This document shows positions 29,528 to 46,509 of a stretch of DNA of 64,000 nt, piece by piece. A program made the position numbers and the translations under genes. Origin of the DNA: Novakomyces olei (Eukaryota); assembly GCA_016906335.1 (NCBI GenBank), contig JADEYG010000007.1, positions 1,302,001 through 1,366,000 of the forward strand. Direction: 5' to 3'. The notes beneath the pieces are model-generated. The model saw only the letters and a program-made list of their open reading frames with translations, made no database searches and was not told where the DNA came from. Positions within the stretch are counted from its first letter, which is position 1. Each line of letters starts with the position of its first letter.

Positions 29528-29772
29528 ATAGTCGGCCGCCTTGGGAATATCTAAAATTCACTCACTCATTGCGAGTGCGCTTAGCTTTGATTATATGGGA
29601 ATATATGTCTGATAAACAAGTAATGCTAGTGTCTGCAAGTAAGCAATATTAGTTGCGTATTTTATCTCGACTGCAAGCAGTTTTTGTCTCAACGCACAAG
29701 TAATACTAATCTGTAATCGAGCACTCATAGTAAACGTAGCCAAACTTTTGACTGCTATATACCAAGTGCCCA

Positions 29773-29796
29773 GCCCTACCCTATACGACAGTCACG
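29773..29796 (+). promoter_or_regulatory. Homol E (GCCCTACCCT) and Homol D (CAGTCACG) ribosomal-protein promoter boxes
   Basis: Near-exact matches to the S. pombe consensus ACCCTACCCT and CAGTCAC(A/G), in E-then-D order, 74-97 nt upstream of the RPL8 ATG. Confidence 0.85.
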
Positions 29797-29869
29797 CAAG
29801 TACCGTGATGCACAACAACAACAGCTACACAGGAAGCTCTGAACCAAATTATTCCCTTATCCCTTCATT

Positions 29870-31086
29870 ATGGTAAGTCAGTCTTCTCTAACAGACTGTG
29901 CGGCGGAAGCAACGGGATTATAAACCGATGCTATCTCTGCAGACTTGCAGCGTGTTATCCTAGTATTACTCTTGCGTTTGCATGAGCATTGCATGAGCAT
30001 AGATGATTATCTTTGACAGGTTTTCAACCTTTGGGTCTTTGGACTGGCAATCGTTTATGTACTGCGCAACTAGGAGCGGTCGGTGACAAATCAGATTTGT
30101 CGCCGACAGGCATTAGGCTTGTTCCTTTTGCAGCCAATGAAGGTTCATCGCTAACCCGAGGCAATGGCTGTGTCTCTTGTGGACCCGTCCGCACAGAGAC
30201 TGTTAGAGATTATCCTATTTTTTTAATTTGAATCTGGGTTAACTCAATGACAGCCGCCCAAGTCGACAAAGAAGACGCCCGCCGCGAACCCCTTCCCCAC
30301 CAAGAAGGCAACGCAGGCCAAGAAGACAAAGAGCCCTCTCTTTGTAAAGCGTCCGAAGAACTTTGGCATTGGTAAGAAAAATAAGCACTAAAAGATTAAA
30401 TCTAACAGACAGGCCAGGATATCCAGCCAAAGCGTGATTTGTCTCGCTTTGTAAAATGGCCCGAGTATGTACAATTGCAGCGCCGCCGCAAGATCCTGAA
30501 CATGCGCCTCAAGGTCCCACCGGCTCTCGCTCAGTTCCAAAACACTTTGGACAAGAACACTGCCACTCAGGTGTTTAAGCTGCTCAACAAGTACCGCCCT
30601 GAGACCAAGGCCGAGAAGAAGGAGCGTCTCACCAAGGAGGCACAGGCTAAAGCTGATGGCAAAGACCCCAAGTCTGTCTCTGATAAGCCTTATGCCGTCA
30701 AGTTTGGGTTGAACCACATTGTTGCCCTCATTGAGGCCAAGAAGCCTTCGTTAGTCTTGATTGCTAATGATGTCGACCCTATTGAGCTGGTTGTCGTGCT
30801 GCCTGCACTCTGCCGCAAGATGGGTGTGCCTTATGCTATTGTGAAGAACAAGGCACGCTTGGGCACAGTCGTCCACCAAAAGAAGGCTACTGCTTTGGCT
30901 CTCGTAGACGTTCGCTCTGAGGACAAGAGCGAGCTGGCATCTGTTGTTTCAGCCCTCAAGGCCAACTACAACGACAAGTTCGAGCAAATCCGCCGCCAAT
31001 GGGGTGGAGGAATTCTTGGACCCAAGAGCGTTTCCCGCACTGAGAAGAAGCGCAAGATTCTGGAAGCGTCGGCTGTGAAGGCATAG
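29870..31086 (+). CDS. RPL8: 60S ribosomal protein eL8 (L8/L7a); coding exons 29870-29872, 30254-30371, 30413-31086
   Basis: M-PPKSTKK...[32 protein letters not shown]...[25 protein letters not shown]. Confidence 0.98.
29885..30209 (+). ncRNA. Structured cis-regulatory RNA in RPL8 intron 1 (long-range helix, hairpin, kink-turn)
   Basis: 29885-29906 pairs with 30185-30209; 13-bp hairpin 30079-30107; k-turn consensus 30133-30162. Confidence 0.72.
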
Positions 31087-38900: not shown

Positions 38901-41900
38901 ATCTGGAAATATCGATTCTGCCAAAGACGCCATTGCTAGACAGGTTTAGGGTAACGGGGCATCTTCCTAAGCTCCATGCTTCTCTTTCAGACGTCAAATA
39001 CAAGGCCTTTATGAGGATTGTGGATGCAGCAGTGCCAAAATTCGATCAGGTTAATCAGATTGTCAGTGATGGTTCAGATATTAAAGAGCCAGACTCGCGT
39101 GCTGCGCAAAATAAGGCCGAAAAGTCTTCAACTAATCGCTCAAAGTCTCAGGCTTCCCTTAGCAATGCGGCGAGCACGCCTTTTGTATTTCAAAGGACCA
39201 AAGATGATGTTGTGGTGCCCAGTGTGCCAGTAAGTGAGGTCGGCAGTGATGCAGCCAGTGAAGATTCCCCGGATGAAGACGAGTCTCAGTTCGAAGAGGC
39301 CAGTGAAGGCGGGCTCAACGTTGTTCAACAATCCAAGTTTCATTTTATCTTTACTATTGGACAACTGCAGGGCTCGCTATTTAAAGCCGACCGTAAAACC
39401 GGCAAGGACAGCTTGCTTGTTGAGCTTTTCATGGACAAGTTTACGATTGATCTTGATTTCAAAGATTACTTGATGACTGCGAATGTGACTTTGCAGGACT
39501 TTAACATGGAAGATCATATCTGCAACGATGTAAATCCAGAGTTTCGCAATATGATCTCGTCGGGGCAGGGCTCCGATGGTACTAGCCCACTAGTTAGTGT
39601 GAGGTTTGCCAAAGTCGACGAAAAGTCTCCCGATTATATGACGAAATATGAGGGCATCGACACTAATCTCGACTGTGATCTCTCTGCTATTAATGCTGTT
39701 ATCACCAGCACCACAGTCCTGGCATTGCTGGATTTTGTAATGGTGACATTTAACCCCCCGACAGACGAACCTTCCATGAAAGCGGTGGAGGCAAGCCCAG
39801 AGACTCGAGCTGCAGAGGCTGTACAAGAGCCAACGAAGCAGCCTCAGAAGATGCGTATTAGGTTCGAATTGAGTGGGATAAACCTCATTCTAAACCATGA
39901 TGGAATACGGCTGGCAACACTTTCTCTGAGTCGTGGTCAAGCTGCTCTCTTTTTGATGGGTCCAAAGCTACGGATTGGAGCAAAACTGGGTCAGTTGGTA
40001 CTCACTGACGATTTGAACGTTGGAGTCGAAGAGACGTCAATATACAGGCAGTTGGTGAGTATTGAAGGCGATCAGCTGGCCGATTTTCGATTTGAAACGT
40101 TTGACAACGACGATGATTCGGTGGAAGAGCATAAGGACTGTGATGCTTCGGTATACCTTCATACTGGCGTCATGAAGATTAATGTGATTGAGGATCCCTG
40201 GCGCAAGATATTAGAATTTGTTTCAAAGCTGATAAAGCTCAAGGGACTGTACGATTCTGCTAGAAACGCAGCCGTCAGTCGTGCTGGAGAAATACAGAAC
40301 CGGGCGGGTAAAATCAAATTTGACCTGTTATTGCAAGCGCCCAGGTTCGTGTTTCCCCGGGTGATTGGGTTTGGACATGGCGAGAGTGACTTTATTGTGC
40401 TTAATCCCGGTGAGCTTTATGCGCAGAGCAGATTTAGGACTGAGACTGATGAACCTGATTCGCCCGTTGTTAACGAGATCAGTGCGGGTGTACGGTCGTT
40501 TTGTTTATCGTCACAAATCCATAATAACAACGAGCATTTCTGTGAGGCGATGGAGATTATACACAACGTCGATATCGGGTTTGATATCTCTTATTGCGCA
40601 GAGCCGCTGGACAAGGACCGTCCTCTTCTTAATGTAAGTTTGGGAAAATTTGAAAATAAATTAAAAATTAAAATTAAAATTAAAAATTAAAATTAAAATG
40701 TACAATCAAAATGAAATACTAACGCTTATAGATATTTGGATCATTGTCGGATATATCTGTCCGGCTGACTGACGCACAGTACGCGTTTGTTATAGACATT
40801 TTCCAGACAGTTCCAAGGATATTTGACGGGTTGAATAAAGCTGGGGATGATCTTGACGACGACTACTTGCAGCTGGCATCGTCTCTAAACGCGTCCAATG
40901 ATCATGTTGACGAGACGGAGACGTCCGGCGCAAATATGTACCCCGAAATTGAGACTCGTGAAAATGCCAAAGTGGAATTCCTGTTTACGCTGAATGAAGT
41001 TCAGCTAGAGCTCTTTGCATTGCCCAAGCACAGTTCTGCGGATATACAATTGTCGACTGTTTCCCTGTCCCAGTTTTGTTTGAAAAACACGTTTACAAAG
41101 GCCAAAATGTTGAACGACGGCTCGTTGGAAGCCGAGCTCCAAATCAAAGCCTTTACCATCCGAGACTCCCGGCAGAGTAAGGACACCGTTTTCCGCGAGA
41201 TTGTCCCAGAGATTCCTCATGACGGGTCTCAGTTTATGGCGAGCGTCTCAATGACGGGCGGCGCTAATGACAAGACGTTGCTTGCCATCATGTCGGTTGA
41301 TAGTCCAACCATAGTTTTCTCGTTAGAGCACGTGTTTGCTCTCAAAGACTTTTTATCTGCCCCCTTCACTGCTTTGCAAAAAGCGGCGGCGACCAAAGAG
41401 AGTATGATGACGCCCGATAATGCCATGGATCAGCAGGAAGAAGAGGTGGAGGCAGACGGGGTTTCTGGTACAGCGTCCGAGCTGGCTCCTAAAGCAGCCG
41501 CGAAGCCCTCGAATCTTACGCTGAGCTACCGTGTCAATATAGTAGATGCGTCAGTTTATCTTCTTGCCGATTCAAGAAATGCATCAACGAGTGCTGTTGT
41601 AATGACGGTGAAAGAGATAATGATCTCTCACCAACGAATCTTTGCAATGGCGATTAATTCTGTCGGCATATACTTTTGCCGGATGGACGATAGGGGAACA
41701 AAGCTGCGTCTGCTGGACGATTTTAATATTCTGTGTACGATAGAGAGTCGAAATACAAACGAGGCCAATTTCTTGACCAGTTTCCAAGTCGATATCGATC
41801 CGCTCGTGCTGCGCCTGTCCCTGCGTGATATTCTGCTGGCGTCAAAGATTATTGATCGAGCCATTGAGCTGTCAAATGTCCCTACTGCCGACGAAGCTGG

Positions 41901-44900
41901 TGGCAGCAGTGGCAGTCAGCCAGATAAGAAGCAGGTGAGAAAAGGGCAAAACAACGGGTCGACACTGGCGACACGGCTGCGGTCGACGAGTATAGGCAGG
42001 TCAGCTCGGCGTCGAGCCAGCACTGTCCTTAGTCGGCCGCAGTCGCTGGCGGCAAATAGTAGGGACAAGATTGTCGTTGACAATGCCACGTCAGTGGTAA
42101 TGAGGCGGGAAATAGTGAACGTAGATTTCAAAGGCTTCCGTCTGGTGCTTATTGGCGATTTGCAAGAACTGCCGTTGCTTGATTTCAATGTAGACCCCTT
42201 CTCTGTTGGTGTACGGGACTGGTCGTCGGACATGCACGTAAACGCAGACGTGGGCCTTTACGTCAATGTGTACAACTTTGTAAACTCTCACTGGGAACCG
42301 TTGATTGAGCCGTGGCAGTTTGGTCTTCATGTGCACAAGTCTGTCAACCTAGGCAAAGTTTCCGCACGTCTATTCTCCCGGAAAAGGGCAGAGATAACGG
42401 TCACTTCGAACGTGTTTGAAACGTTTACAAAGCTGCATAGGGTCATCAACAGCTCGTCAGACTATATTCTGGAAAAGCCGAGGGGCTCAATCCCACACTA
42501 TCGGATCCGCAACCAGACGGGGTACGAGATATCCGTGTGGACGGACAACGAGACCGCTGAGGACGAGGAGGCTCAGGTCATTGCGGACGGAGAGCAGATC
42601 AACTGGAGCTTTGAAGACTGGGTCAAAATGCGAGAGAATCTCAAGACAGACACGACCCGTAACCGACTGGGGATCAAGCTGCTGGGCACAGACTACACCA
42701 GTGTCACGGGTGTCAGTGTCGACAGGGATCAGCAGAGTTTGTACATCCTTCAGCCTAAAAAGACGGTGCTGCACCGTCTCGCAGTCACCGTCAAACTCGG
42801 CAAGGACTATGTGAAAAACGTGACTATCCGCTCCGCCTTGGCTGTCCAAAACTCGTTGCAAATTGCCATAGAGGCAGTGCTGTGTGACGACGAAGGCAGA
42901 CCCAAATCCAAAGTGTACAAGATTGCACCAAATGACTCGTGTTCTTTTCCCATTGAACTCGCTTACACTTATGCGATACGCGTCCGGCCGGACCCAGAGT
43001 TTGGGTACACGTGGTCCTACCAATCCTCGTTCTGGCGCGACTATTTAACCACACAATCCAGAGCAGTCACGTGCCGCCCATTGCAGGCAGAGTCTACTGC
43101 CTTTAACATTAGGGTTTTCGCCAACTATGACCGTAGCAATCCGCTGCCCCGGGTTTACCCTTACATGACGCTGACGGTTTACCCGCCCATGGAGATCCAA
43201 AACCTGCTGCCTTACGATATCGATTTCCGGATCTTTGAAAAGGGCACAAAGCAGGACTGGAACAGTTCGTTGGCACAGGGCAAGCGGGCTCCAGTGCACG
43301 TGGTTGACCTGGCCAATGTCATTTTGCTCGGAGTAACGCTCAAGGGAACACAGTTCCGGCCGAGTTCTTTTGCCATTGTAAGCACAAATAGCCCAGAGGA
43401 CTATAGACGCGAAACGGTGCTGAACCTGACGGACGAGAGTGGCACAAAACTGACGCTGAACCTGCACTATACCGACCTGTCTCCCGGCGGAGCGGCTTTC
43501 CGTGTAAGCGTGTACTGCCAGCATGTAATCCTGAACAAAACGAGCCACGATATTCAGACGCGATCTAAATCCTTTTTGCAGCAGTCCAAGCTGACAGCGG
43601 GACAGTCAAATTTGTCAAAGGACGCTCCGTACATGTTTGCCTATGATACGGAGGACCGGCGTAATCGTGCTCTTGTAAAAATTGACAATTCGCAGTGGAG
43701 CAAGCCGCAGTCCTTTGAGGCCATTGGCAGCTCTTACGAGGTAGTTGTGCCCTCTGCGGACAAGAAAACGGAGTATTACATCGGCGTCAGTATTGAAGAG
43801 GGCGAGGGCAAGTACAAGCTCACTCGTGTCGTGACAATTGCTCCCAGATTTGTAGTGAAAAACAATTTGGACGAGTCTTTGGACGTACGGCAGCCTGGCA
43901 CTTCTCAGGTCCTGCATTTGGAGCCCAATGGCATCGGCGGCCTCGATGTCTTGCGCTCTGATTCGCCAAGGCAGATTTGTATCTGCTACCCTGGCGTCAA
44001 CAACGAATGGTCGGCTCCCTTCAATATTGAGGACCTCGGCCGAGTCCACGTCAAGCTGCAGCGACCCGGTGAGAGGCAGTGCCTTATCAGGGCCGATATT
44101 TTGGGCGAAAAGGCTACACTATTTATCCATCTAACAGTGGAAAAGAAATCATGGCCTTTCTCCGTGCGAAACGAGAGCGATGAAACGTTTTTGTTTTGGC
44201 AGTCGAACCCGTTTGCTGCTGAAGATGATGATAGGGCAATTAAAGCGGCAGCAGGAGGTGGATCTGGACCAGGGTTAGGGTCAGGATCTGGATCTGGATC
44301 AGGGTTAGGGTCAGGATCTGGGTCAGGTTACCATGCGAAAAGGTACAGGCTGCCGCCCAAGAGTATTATGCCTTATGCCTGGGACTATCCGGCGGCGGGC
44401 AACAAGGAGCTGGTTATTTCGTGCTGCAACAAGGAGCGGCTAATACGGCCAAACGAGATTGGCGTGCTTCCCCCGCTGCGTGTTACGACGGGCTCAGGGC
44501 AGAGCAAAACGTTTAGTCTCGATGTAGTCGGGGACGGCCCTTGCCAGCGAGTCGTGCTTCGAAACTATCGTAAATCTGACAGTATCTACCAGCTGGCCAA
44601 TAAAAGCAGCCGCAATGCTAACGGAGAAGTCGTTTCCACTGACAAGTTTGAGGTTATAGACTACCGTGACGATGTGAAGCTGGAGGCAGAGGTCGATTTT
44701 GAAGGGTTGGGTGTGTCCCTCGTGAACAAGCGCCAGCAAGAGTTGGCGTATTTGACGCTGAGAGGCTTTGATGTTAAATTCAAGGACTCGGACGTCTCGC
44801 AGAGCCTTTCGCTCGTGGTCAAGTGGATCCAGATCGATAACCAGCTGTACGGAGGCATTTACCCCATCGTGCTCTACCCGAGCGTAGTGCCCAAGGACGG

Positions 44901-46509
44901 CAGAGAGATGGATATCCACCCGATCCTGAGCGGCTCAGTGGCCCGACTCAAGGACGATGCTCACGGAGTCGTTTACATCAAGTATGCCTCTGTGCTGCTG
45001 CAGGAATTGACACTGGAAATCGATGAAGATTTCTTGTTTGCCCTGCTTGATTTCTCCAAGGTTTCGGATACCGCGTGGGCGGACGAGAACAACGAGGGAA
45101 AGCTCTGGCAGCCCAACGATGCCGCCTTACCACAGCCAAGTGCCGTTAATTCCGGGGAAGATTTGTACTTTGAAGTGCTGCATTTGCAGCCAATGCAGCT
45201 AAATATTTCCTTTGTACGGACAGAGCGGGTCAATGTGGAGGACAAGACGTCTTCCAAGAATTTCTTGATGTTTTTCCTGAATATTTTGACGATGGCAATC
45301 GGCAATATCAATGACGCACCCGTCAGACTGAACGCTCTGCTCGTGGAAAATATGAGGGTCACGCTTCCGCTCCTGCTGCAGCACATTCAGGGCCACTATG
45401 GCCAAGAGTTTATCTACCAGATCCATAAAATATTGGGCTCTGCAGATTTCTTGGGCAATCCGGTAGGCCTCTTCAACAATCTCAGCTCCGGCGTCGCCGA
45501 TATCTTTTACGAACCCTACCACGGTTTTATTCTGACAGATAGACCTCAAGAGTTAGGGTTAGGGTTTGCAAGAGGTACAGCGAGTTTTGTGAAAAAGACA
45601 GTGTTTGGATTTTCGGATAGCTTTTACAAGGTCACTGGTAGCATTTCCAAGGGGCTCAGTGTTGCTACTATGGACAAAAACTTTCAAGATCGACGGCGCA
45701 TGTCCCGTGCACGCAATCGGCCTCGCCATGCGTTTGTTGGAGTCACGACCGGAGCCGATTCCTTTATGACCAGCGTTGCTTCTGGCTTTGAAGGCCTCGC
45801 CCGGCAGCCCATGGAGGGACTGCAGCGAGGAGGCGCAGCTGGCTTCTTCAAGGGATTTGGCAAGGGCGTTTTGGGGTTTGCCACAAAGCCGATGATTGGT
45901 GTTTTTGATTTGGCCAGCAATGTTTCTGAAGGCATTCGAAATACTACTACCGTGTTTGATGCTGACGGGATCGATAAAGTGCGCCTTACCCGGTTCATTG
46001 GCCGCGATGGCGTTGTTCGCCCTTATTCGCAACGAGAAGGTAAGAAGAGCCGTTTAATTTGCAATAATTACAAAGGAAAAAGCAATATTGTTTTATTGTT
46101 TTATCATTTAACTCTATAATTTAATGTCTTGATTTGTTTATTCTTTCTTTGCAACTCTTGCTGATCTCATCTAGCTTTGGGTCAATTCTGGTTGAAACAG
46201 CTCGATAATGGCAAATACTTCAACGAAGAGTATTTAGCTCATTTATCTGTGATGGATGATTGTGTTGTAATGCTGACATACGAGCATCTTTTGCTTGTAA
46301 AGGCCAAAAATCTGGAGACAGAATGGCAAGTTTCTTTTGAGGACGTGCAAACTATATCTATGGAAAAAACGGGGATCGCAGTAATATTGAGAGGCGGATT
46401 AAGGGGTCCATTTGTGCCTATTGAGCACGCATCTGCACGCAAATTTTTATACACAAAACTGGGAATAGCAGTGAGTGAGTATAATAAGCGCAACAGGCCA
46501 TTGATCTGA
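35954..46509 (+). CDS. VPS13: Bridge-like lipid transfer protein Vps13, multi-exon
   Basis: Chorein_N [68 protein letters not shown]_C and PH-like C-terminus. Confidence 0.98.
44260..44319 (+). repeat. 30-nt tandem duplication encoding a Gly/Ser linker in VPS13
   Basis: GGATCTGGAYCAGGGTTAGGGTCAGGATCT x2 (29/30 identical). Confidence 0.9.

Follow-up and report, generated by a model that had tools for sequence, protein, structure and literature searches.

In the fungus Novakomyces olei, intron 1 of the gene encoding ribosomal protein eL8 (RPL8) contains a hairpin which, by its sequence, is a genuine standard kink-turn (k-turn) of the type found in U4 small nuclear RNA (snRNA). The gene lies in a stretch of 64,000 nucleotides, hereafter the window (NCBI GenBank assembly GCA_016906335.1, contig JADEYG010000007.1, positions 1,302,001 to 1,366,000 of the forward strand), and all coordinates are those of the window, its first letter being position 1. 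Our best explanation, which we put forward tentatively, is that this U4-type k-turn forms part of an ancient regulatory eL8 intron, in which binding of eL8 or Snu13 would switch off splicing. The finding exceeds the hairpin, as the comparison of related loci points to an element of eL8 introns that spans Dikarya and bears a k-turn signature at its 3' splice site.

The k-turn hairpin and its host gene

The eL8 gene and the hairpin are laid out in the window as follows.

29870-29872, plus strand: exon 1 of the eL8 gene, consisting of the ATG only
29873-30253, plus strand: intron 1, 381 nt, GTAAGT...CAG, phase 0
30254-30371, plus strand: exon 2
30372-30412, plus strand: intron 2
30413-31086, plus strand: exon 3 with the stop codon
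30133-30162, plus strand: k-turn hairpin GCC AAU GA A GGUU CAUCGCU AACC C GA GGC, from the sequence and a k-turn scanner
30133-30145, plus strand: 5' half of the hairpin, GCC 30133-35, bulge AAU 30136-38, GA 30139-40, A 30141, GGUU 30142-45
30146-30162, plus strand: loop and 3' half of the hairpin, CAUCGCU 30146-52, AACC 30153-56, C 30157, GA 30158-59, GGC 30160-62

Joining the ATG to 30254-30371 and 30413-31086 gave an eL8 of 264 amino acids with a match to Pfam Ribosomal_L7Ae at E = 1.7e-20, which bore out the statement in the earlier note, a first reading of the sequence, that the hairpin lies inside intron 1 of an L7Ae-family gene. The k-turn is therefore located in the pre-mRNA of an L7Ae-family protein's own gene, 91 nt upstream of the 3' splice site. 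The nearest named proteins were the eL8 of Schizosaccharomyces japonicus (82%), S. pombe (77%) and Saitoella (75%), identities that probably place the host in Taphrinomycotina, with no close sequenced relative in the protein collection. The intron itself folded far better than shuffled sequences (z = -4.72 for 29875-30253, 100 shuffles). Overlapping contigs provided neither variation nor splicing information: one (X2) was identical throughout the overlap, and two others (X3 and X4) reached 38 nt of exon 2 only.

The hairpin has a C stem GCC:GGC with C:G at -1b:-1n, tandem GA/GA pairs, an A.C pair at 3b.3n, an NC stem GGUU:AACC and a loop of 7 nt, and thus all the parts of a standard simple k-turn as defined in PMC5061560 (bulge, GA/GA, Watson-Crick C helix and NC helix) are present at 30133-30162. 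A k-turn scanner written for this analysis, whose pattern combines a C stem of three or more pairs, a bulge of 3 nt, a GA on either side of an NC stem and the closing strand of the C stem, found this hairpin as its sole match within 29701-30500, and the letters and coordinates given in the earlier note were exact. Over both strands of the window there were 345 loose k-turn-like matches, 57 of them with an NC stem of at least four pairs. For the pattern CCAATGA N6-30 CGAGG the expectation is 0.17 occurrences in the window, both strands counted, and about 5e-4 on the sense strand of the 381-nt intron; at least one occurrence was present in 16 of 100 shuffles. The fold energy of the local 52 nt was ordinary (z = -0.79), as is to be expected because the energy model gives G.A pairs no score. 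A published rule states that a k-turn folds in metal ions alone only when 3b is C or 3n is G (PMC6298567). Since 3b is A and 3n is C in this hairpin, it should fold poorly without protein, and we predict that its folding is protein-dependent, like that of the k-turns in archaeal l7ae leaders. Kt-15, to which the eL8 site in 25S rRNA corresponds, is a complex k-turn with C.G at 3b.3n (PMC5061560).

The likeness to U4 claimed for the hairpin held when it was compared with the strands of the human U4 k-turn printed in PMC2952850: AGCCAAUGA, GGUU and CCGAGGC are common to the two. The C stem, the AAU bulge, the GA/GA pairs and the flanking letters are identical with those of the k-turn in the U4 snRNA 5' stem-loop; the window hairpin differs in its additional A.C pair at 3b.3n, its NC stem, which is longer (4 bp), and its loop of 7 nt. 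The likeness does not extend further, as had also been claimed. Rfam 15 gave no match in the whole window at gathering score and, at E up to 10, nothing relevant in 29700-30500 or in 30122-30176, so that no Rfam family or small nucleolar RNA (snoRNA) covers the hairpin, and no U4 element beyond it (a whole-molecule match with U6-pairing stems and Sm site) was found by these searches. A sucC match near the intron on the minus strand (E = 2, 16 bits against a gathering score of 50) was taken as noise. Neither CUGA (CTGA) nor UGAUGA (TGATGA), looked for as signs of a box C/D snoRNA, occurs in 29873-30253.

The eL8 intron family of Ascomycota and Basidiomycota

Related introns were sought in 80 eL8 loci obtained by a protein-guided scan of metagenome contigs; the best had 79% protein identity and none was a close relative. 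Upstream of the main exon the 7-mer UCAAUGA was present in 47 of the 80 loci, and its end lay 2-19 nt ahead of the AG opening the PPK exon in 42 of the 46 loci examined. When the position called L1 was left free, the motif CUC-N-AUGA was found on the sense strand upstream of the main exon in 63 of the 80 loci versus 1 of 80 in the 900 nt downstream, and UAGAG stood 12-135 nt before it in 56 of the 63 (42 unique sequences). L1 was A in 45 loci, U in 8, G in 6 and C in 4, and the AUGA was invariant in all 63; variation confined to L1 is as expected if the motif is the loop strand of a k-turn. The antisense control for CUC-N-AUGA gave matches in 21 of the 80 loci; all listed matches but one were P-L-I-E codons of exon 2, and the control was therefore contaminated by coding sequence. 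In two loci (L009 and L012) the intron lies in the 5' untranslated region (5' UTR), so that coding constraint is not the cause of the motif.

The protein identities of family members were 95-97% to Penicillium, 84-91% to other Pezizomycotina and, for one group, 92-93% to Agaricomycetes. Among the other 17 loci are yeast-type genes that have no intron, spliced copies, and genes in which the N-terminal exon was not located. The family element is defined by a first intron that begins right after the ATG or lies in the 5' UTR of an eL8 gene and has CUC-N-AUGA no more than about 20 nt before the 3' splice site, and by UAGAG 12-135 nt upstream, whose GAG pairs with the CUC and closes helix P3. Intron 1 of the window begins right after the ATG, carries CUC-N-AUGA at its 3' splice site and UAGAG upstream of it, and has a GAG:CUC pairing that closes helix P3. 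We conclude that it belongs to a structured eL8 intron family shared by Ascomycota and Basidiomycota and hence Dikarya-wide. The parts of the window intron that correspond to the family, with one look-alike, are these.

30203-30208, plus strand: UUAGAG, containing the family-invariant UAGAG (30204-08), 39 nt before CUC
30243-30253, plus strand: CUC AAU GA CAG, or CUCAAUGACAG, made up of CUCAAUGA (30243-50) and CAG (30251-53); it can be read as a k-turn's bulged strand, and the 3' splice site is at its end
30206-30245, plus strand: family helix P3, GAGAUUAUCC (30206-15) with GGGUUAACUC (30236-45); likely branch point UUAAC at 30239-43
30116-30121, plus strand: GGCUUG, a look-alike of the Pezizomycotina UGGCUUGAG strand, without GA

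Structure in the family was assessed by tests of cognate against non-cognate duplexes. MAFFT mis-registered UAGAG in 3 to 9 rows of the alignments (A1 and A2), and RNAalifold found hardly any consensus structure in the group alignments (-11.6 and -0.4). Helix P3 begins with the GAG of UAGAG paired to the CUC of CUC-N-AUGA and encloses the branch point, GCUGAY or similar. For its test, the 22 nt after UAGAG were paired with the 22 nt before CUC, the invariant letters being omitted, in 32 unique sequences, that of the window among them, after removal of duplicates and of loci lacking an exact UAGAG. Cognate duplexes gave -13.65 kcal/mol and non-cognate duplexes -7.81 kcal/mol, and none of 2000 permutations reached the observed value; P3 around the branch point is thus supported by covariation. 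A zipper-type pairing, in which the first 60 nt of the intron meet the UAGAG region, was tested in the 23 introns with a mapped 5' end and gave -17.69 kcal/mol for cognate and -15.52 kcal/mol for non-cognate duplexes (a value reached by 4 of 2000 permutations), the window having the strongest duplex of the 23 (-36.2 kcal/mol). In three loci (L001, L002 and L011) a shared CUCGAC(C)UC... stretch, some 30-45 nt past the start of the intron, pairs with the UAGAG region and resembles a conserved 5' zipper half in Pezizomycotina.

In 19 of 43 unique sequences a further strand, GGCU(N)GAR, precedes UAGAG by 40-55 nt; shuffled sequences gave 3.7 +/- 1.8 and at most 10. In Pezizomycotina-type loci this strand and CUC-AAU-GA-Y-AGCC together contain all the parts of a k-turn at the 3' splice site, which would be assembled as follows.

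Pezizomycotina-type core, C helix: GAG:CUC with P3
Pezizomycotina-type core, loop: AAU
Pezizomycotina-type core, tandem pairs: GA opposite GA
Pezizomycotina-type core, NC helix: GGCU:AGCC, spanning the 3' splice site between AG and CC

The window does not contain the GGCU(N)GAR strand; it has GGCUUGUU and GGCUGUGU, neither with GA. A second k-turn, suggested by the GGC-RAU-GA seen upstream in Agaricomycete-type loci and taking its non-bulged GA from UAGAG, was rejected as a general feature, since it occurred in 13 of 35 loci against 8.8 +/- 2.6 in shuffles, 23 of 300 of which reached 13, and was not significant.

Several other observations on the family motifs should be recorded. Two loci with UAGAG and CUC-N-AUGA (L022 and L058) and one with CUC-N-AUGA only (L057) have these motifs 75-200 nt before the 3' splice site and not adjacent to it. 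In three yeast-type loci (L016, L030 and L033) the AUG within (C)CAAUGAC is in frame with eL8 (MTQP...), so that unspliced RNA could still encode a near-normal protein. Ten contigs of about 1 kb (L008, L009, L012, L038, L051, L065, L066, L068, L071 and L078) carry, besides the eL8 coding region, either intron 1 in unspliced form or just its 3' part; if these are transcript assemblies, intron-retaining eL8 RNA is abundant in nature. In exon 2 of L012, L014, L040, L067 and L080 the P-L-I-E codons read CUCAUUGAG, and in other loci CUCAUCGAG; UCAUUGAG, within CUCAUUGAG, is the perfect complement of CUCAAUGA about 100-160 nt upstream, which may be a coincidence or a further alternative pairing. A second copy of CTCAATGAC in the window, at 41247-41255, lies inside an open reading frame of 1791 amino acids (40744-46119); as this 9-mer is expected 0.61 times per window, we took the copy as chance and rejected it as a real element.

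Alternative folds and a candidate splicing switch

Folding of intron 1 brought out further strands around the hairpin, each able to take part in one or more of the competing structures.

30130-30136, plus strand: GCAGCCA, 5' strand of the helix that excludes the k-turn, from the folds
30165-30171, plus strand: UGGCUGU, a shared strand that pairs either with 30130-36 or, as GGCUGU 30166-71, with ACAGCC 30250-55 across the 3' splice site
30172-30200, plus strand: local hairpin GUCUC...GAGAC at the position of family helix P1, its 3' half doubling as the 3' strand of the zipper; from the minimum free energy (MFE) and k-turn-forced folds
29885-29903, plus strand: 5' strand of the zipper, UCUCUAACAG (29885-94) and CUGUGCGG (29896-903), pairing with 30200-09 and 30189-96, respectively

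The 7-bp helix GCAGCCA/UGGCUGU, put forward in the earlier note as a competitor, was the MFE choice both in the local 52 nt and in the whole intron, and its 5' strand overlaps the C stem of the hairpin; in folding it was a real alternative and mutually exclusive with the k-turn. Energies for the region 29873-30275, which comprises intron 1 and the start of exon 2, were as follows.

MFE fold: -138.0 kcal/mol, with the rival helix 30130-36:30165-71 formed
k-turn stems forced: MFE + 3.4 kcal/mol, with GGCUGU:ACAGCC, the local hairpin 30172-30200 and GAG:CUC/P3 arising unconstrained, which together make the family three-way junction
zipper forced (29885-94:30200-09 and 29896-903:30189-96): MFE + 4.4 kcal/mol, with the branch point and the 3' splice site unpaired

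The zipper is present in the MFE fold of the intron alone and costs 4.4 kcal/mol once exon 2 is included. By these predicted energies the three states lie within about 4 kcal/mol, which is the range needed by a protein-operated switch. Two other features of the intron stood out. A perfect 13-bp hairpin with a 3-nt loop (GUCGGUGACAAAU CAG AUUUGUCGCCGAC, 30079-30107) was found in the middle of the intron in every predicted fold, and a direct repeat, GCATGAGCAT, at 29980-89 and 29991-30000 is followed by a sequence resembling a 3' splice site, UCUUUGACAG, which ends near 30019 and could be an alternative acceptor.

We infer from the sequence, its context and the modelling that an L7Ae-family protein binds the hairpin and that feedback results, and we propose that it would operate in the following way. 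When eL8 exceeds the use made of it by ribosome assembly, free eL8 would bind the hairpin and keep the C stem GCC:GGC closed; Snu13, a related nuclear k-turn protein, would be the alternative binder. Binding would open GCAGCCA:UGGCUGU and release GGCUGU to pair with ACAGCC across the 3' splice site, whereupon the local hairpin, GAG:CUC and P3 would complete the family three-way junction. With the branch point and 3' splice site buried in this junction, splicing would decrease, the unspliced RNA would be non-productive, and the loop would be one of negative feedback. When the protein is absent the rival helix would form, and the 5' end of the intron could also pair over a long range with the UAGAG region as the zipper; in the zipper fold the branch point and 3' splice site would be open and the ends of the intron brought together. 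We favor eL8 as the ligand because the host gene encodes eL8, and consider Snu13 a real alternative because of the likeness to U4. As the family-invariant CUC-N-AUGA reads like the bulged strand of a k-turn, feedback by an L7Ae-family protein is plausible across the family.

A number of results weigh against this explanation. The U4-type GA/GA hairpin was found in none of the 80 related loci (best protein identity 79%), which leaves it without comparative support. The earlier note had read the hairpin as an autoregulatory switch operated by eL8 or Snu13, and its k-turn, its likeness to U4, its eL8 host and the excluding helix all withstood scrutiny, and no Rfam entry covers it; the absence of the hairpin from the 80 loci, none of them a close relative, bears on conservation at that distance only. 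A general enrichment of k-turn hairpins in the family introns was rejected (45 sense and 35 antisense matches; shuffles 20.0 +/- 5.2). The helix between the upstream strand and the 3' splice site was likewise unsupported in the family, with -8.48 kcal/mol for cognate and -8.51 kcal/mol for non-cognate duplexes and 1030 of 2000 permutations reaching the observed value. P3 of the window is weak, -4.2 kcal/mol without GAG:CUC (rank 5 of 32), and the plain MFE fold also pairs the 3' splice site, with UGUUA at 30201-05, so that the contrast between an open and a closed splice site is valid only against the zipper state.

Other points concern the k-turn character of the conserved core. Opposite CUC-N-AUGA, the non-bulged strand of the window and of Agaricomycete-type loci offers UA, preceding GAG, and not GA. 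Non-standard k-turns with U at 2n do exist, for example Kt-23 (PMC5061560); a plain helix UAGAG:CUC-[AA]-UG with a two-A bulge fits the letters of these loci equally well. In the Pezizomycotina core, hairpin P1 is inserted in the non-bulged strand just after GA, opposite AAU, which is the topology of a k-junction as defined in PMC10573300, and archaeal L7Ae failed to fold two known k-junctions according to the same source. The Pezizomycotina-type members match k-junctions (PMC4005666) in topology, while the window and the Agaricomycete-type loci have no GA on that strand.

A rival view is that the hairpin is a lineage-specific, functionally neutral elaboration of a variable P1 arm and that any regulation resides solely in UAGAG, P3, CUC-N-AUGA and the zipper. 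The hairpin does lie within that variable arm, upstream of UAGAG; among other members the stretch from the upstream strand to UAGAG differs in both sequence and length, the hairpin was seen in none of the 80 loci, and loose k-turn-like hairpins are frequent by chance. On the other hand, drift is hard to credit for a 20-letter match to U4 that is expected about 5e-4 times in the intron and stands within the gene of a k-turn-binding protein. Moreover, the C stem overlaps 30130-36, and the strand that pairs with 30130-36 has the 3' splice site as another possible partner, which places the hairpin at a switch point. We consider a neutral arm unlikely, though it deserves to be kept in mind.

The hairpin might instead bind Snu13 (15.5K) and not eL8, acting as a mimic of the U4 5' stem-loop that nucleates a small intronic ribonucleoprotein and hinders excision of the intron whatever the level of eL8. 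Snu13 is nuclear and would encounter the RNA during transcription. The match to the Snu13/15.5K site of human U4 (AGCCAAUGA, GGUU and CCGAGGC) exceeds what a minimal k-turn requires, and intronic K-loop RNAs bound by 15.5K suppress excision of their host introns according to the available text of a preprint (bioRxiv 10.64898/2026.08.03.742641). However, the host is the eL8 gene and the whole family has k-turn-like invariants, both of which point to a gene-specific loop, and the element is a k-turn hairpin, not the terminal C/D motif of a K-loop RNA, in an intron without CUGA or UGAUGA. We therefore regard action through Snu13 irrespective of eL8 as improbable. Still less can be said for the hairpin as a piece of a U4 snRNA copy inserted there or as a portion of a box C/D snoRNA encoded in the intron: it resembles the U4 k-turn at the level of letters and ribosomal protein introns are often hosts to snoRNAs, but the Rfam searches of the window, of 29700-30500 and of 30122-30176 were empty, the intron has neither CUGA nor UGAUGA, and the resemblance stops at a 30-nt hairpin with an extra A.C pair and another loop, so that this possibility is close to refuted.

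Known systems and the meaning of the element

To our knowledge, autoregulation through a structure in a ribosomal protein's own pre-mRNA is known for only a handful of genes, and the cases of such autoregulation within the L7Ae family are yeast L30e and archaeal L7Ae. We compared our preferred explanation, a protein-operated k-turn switch in the eL8 intron, with these and other systems. Yeast RPL30 pre-mRNA contains a k-turn to which its own product, L30e, binds, and its splicing is blocked early (cited in PMC6298567 and PMC4695336). As there, an L7Ae-family ribosomal protein has a k-turn within its own pre-mRNA in N. olei; in contrast, the RPL30 k-turn includes the 5' splice site and its binding by L30 has been shown, whereas the window hairpin, which we know from its letters, lies 91 nt before the 3' splice site, and the conserved core of the family is at the branch point and 3' splice site. 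The k-turn in the archaeal L7Ae leader (PMC5539422, PMC6298567) is similar in that eL8 is the eukaryotic ribosomal counterpart of L7Ae and in that 3b is not C and 3n is not G; a k-turn predicted to be unable to fold without protein suits a protein-operated switch. The archaeal element differs in lying in the 5' leader and controlling translation, whereas that of the window is intronic and would control splicing, and C:G at -1b:-1n, present in the window, occurs in none of the six archaeal sequences given in the available text of PMC6298567.

Among fungal introns, the closest published structure is the rpl7-l8-s3 motif (Li and Breaker 2017, PMC5640933), described as occurring in introns of fungal L7, L8 and S3 genes, with two long hairpins and a conserved purine-rich stretch in P2, in 29 examples from 25 species. 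Both this motif and the eL8 intron family are conserved structured RNAs in introns of fungal L8 genes, and, as far as its description in the text allows comparison, the motif is probably the P1/P3/UAGAG part of the present family. The words k-turn, kink and L7Ae are absent from the text of PMC5640933. The motif is not in Rfam 15, which gave no match in the window or in 20 family loci, and the original paper was the only literature found that names it. The claim of novelty made in the earlier note thus survives in part: there is no Rfam entry and no k-turn reading in PMC5640933, but a structured motif in fungal L7, L8 and S3 introns was published in 2017. No RPL8 structure is among those listed in the available text of Gao et al. 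2021 (PMC8216456), and we found no paper describing the eL8 intron k-turn element; figures and supplements, which lay outside the coverage of this search, may bear on novelty.

The RPL7B intron resembles that of the window in its logic, since a zipper stem there alternates with a mutually exclusive conserved structure that mediates autoregulation (PMC12311795); it differs in its protein, uL30, which is outside the L7Ae family, and in its RNA, and no k-turn is mentioned in the available text. Unproductive splicing coupled to nonsense-mediated decay has been noted for L7A/eL8 genes of human and C. elegans (review, PMC8047918). The mammalian intronic K-loop RNAs of the preprint cited above are likewise intronic k-type motifs, which are bound by L7Ae-family proteins and suppress excision of their host introns; they differ in being terminal C/D motifs in stable small RNAs, while the window element is a k-turn hairpin in a fungus, recognized in genomic DNA. 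Pairs of L7Ae and k-turn are already in use in synthetic biology (PMC5539422).

A broader reading, which we hold more loosely than the explanation for the window itself and consider possible at most, would be that eL8 gauges its surplus by means of k-turn RNA in its first intron, with a device as old as, or older than, the ancestor shared by Ascomycota and Basidiomycota. On one side would stand a three-way junction, built around a k-turn core, in which the branch point and 3' splice site are buried; on the other, a zipper that enhances splicing. The archaeal loop between L7Ae and its k-turn would have been kept across two domains and shifted from translation to splicing, and in the window it would have been rebuilt with a U4-mimicking hairpin as the handle for the protein.

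If eL8 does regulate itself in this way, there would be a candidate ligand and a mechanism for a structured intron motif that has been without a function since 2017, feedback through a k-turn would rank among the oldest conserved regulatory devices, and a natural, compact, protein-operated splicing switch would be at hand for study and engineering. The invariant CUC-N-AUGA at the 3' splice site offers a direct experimental handle on such regulation in model fungi, for example Aspergillus, Neurospora or Coprinopsis.

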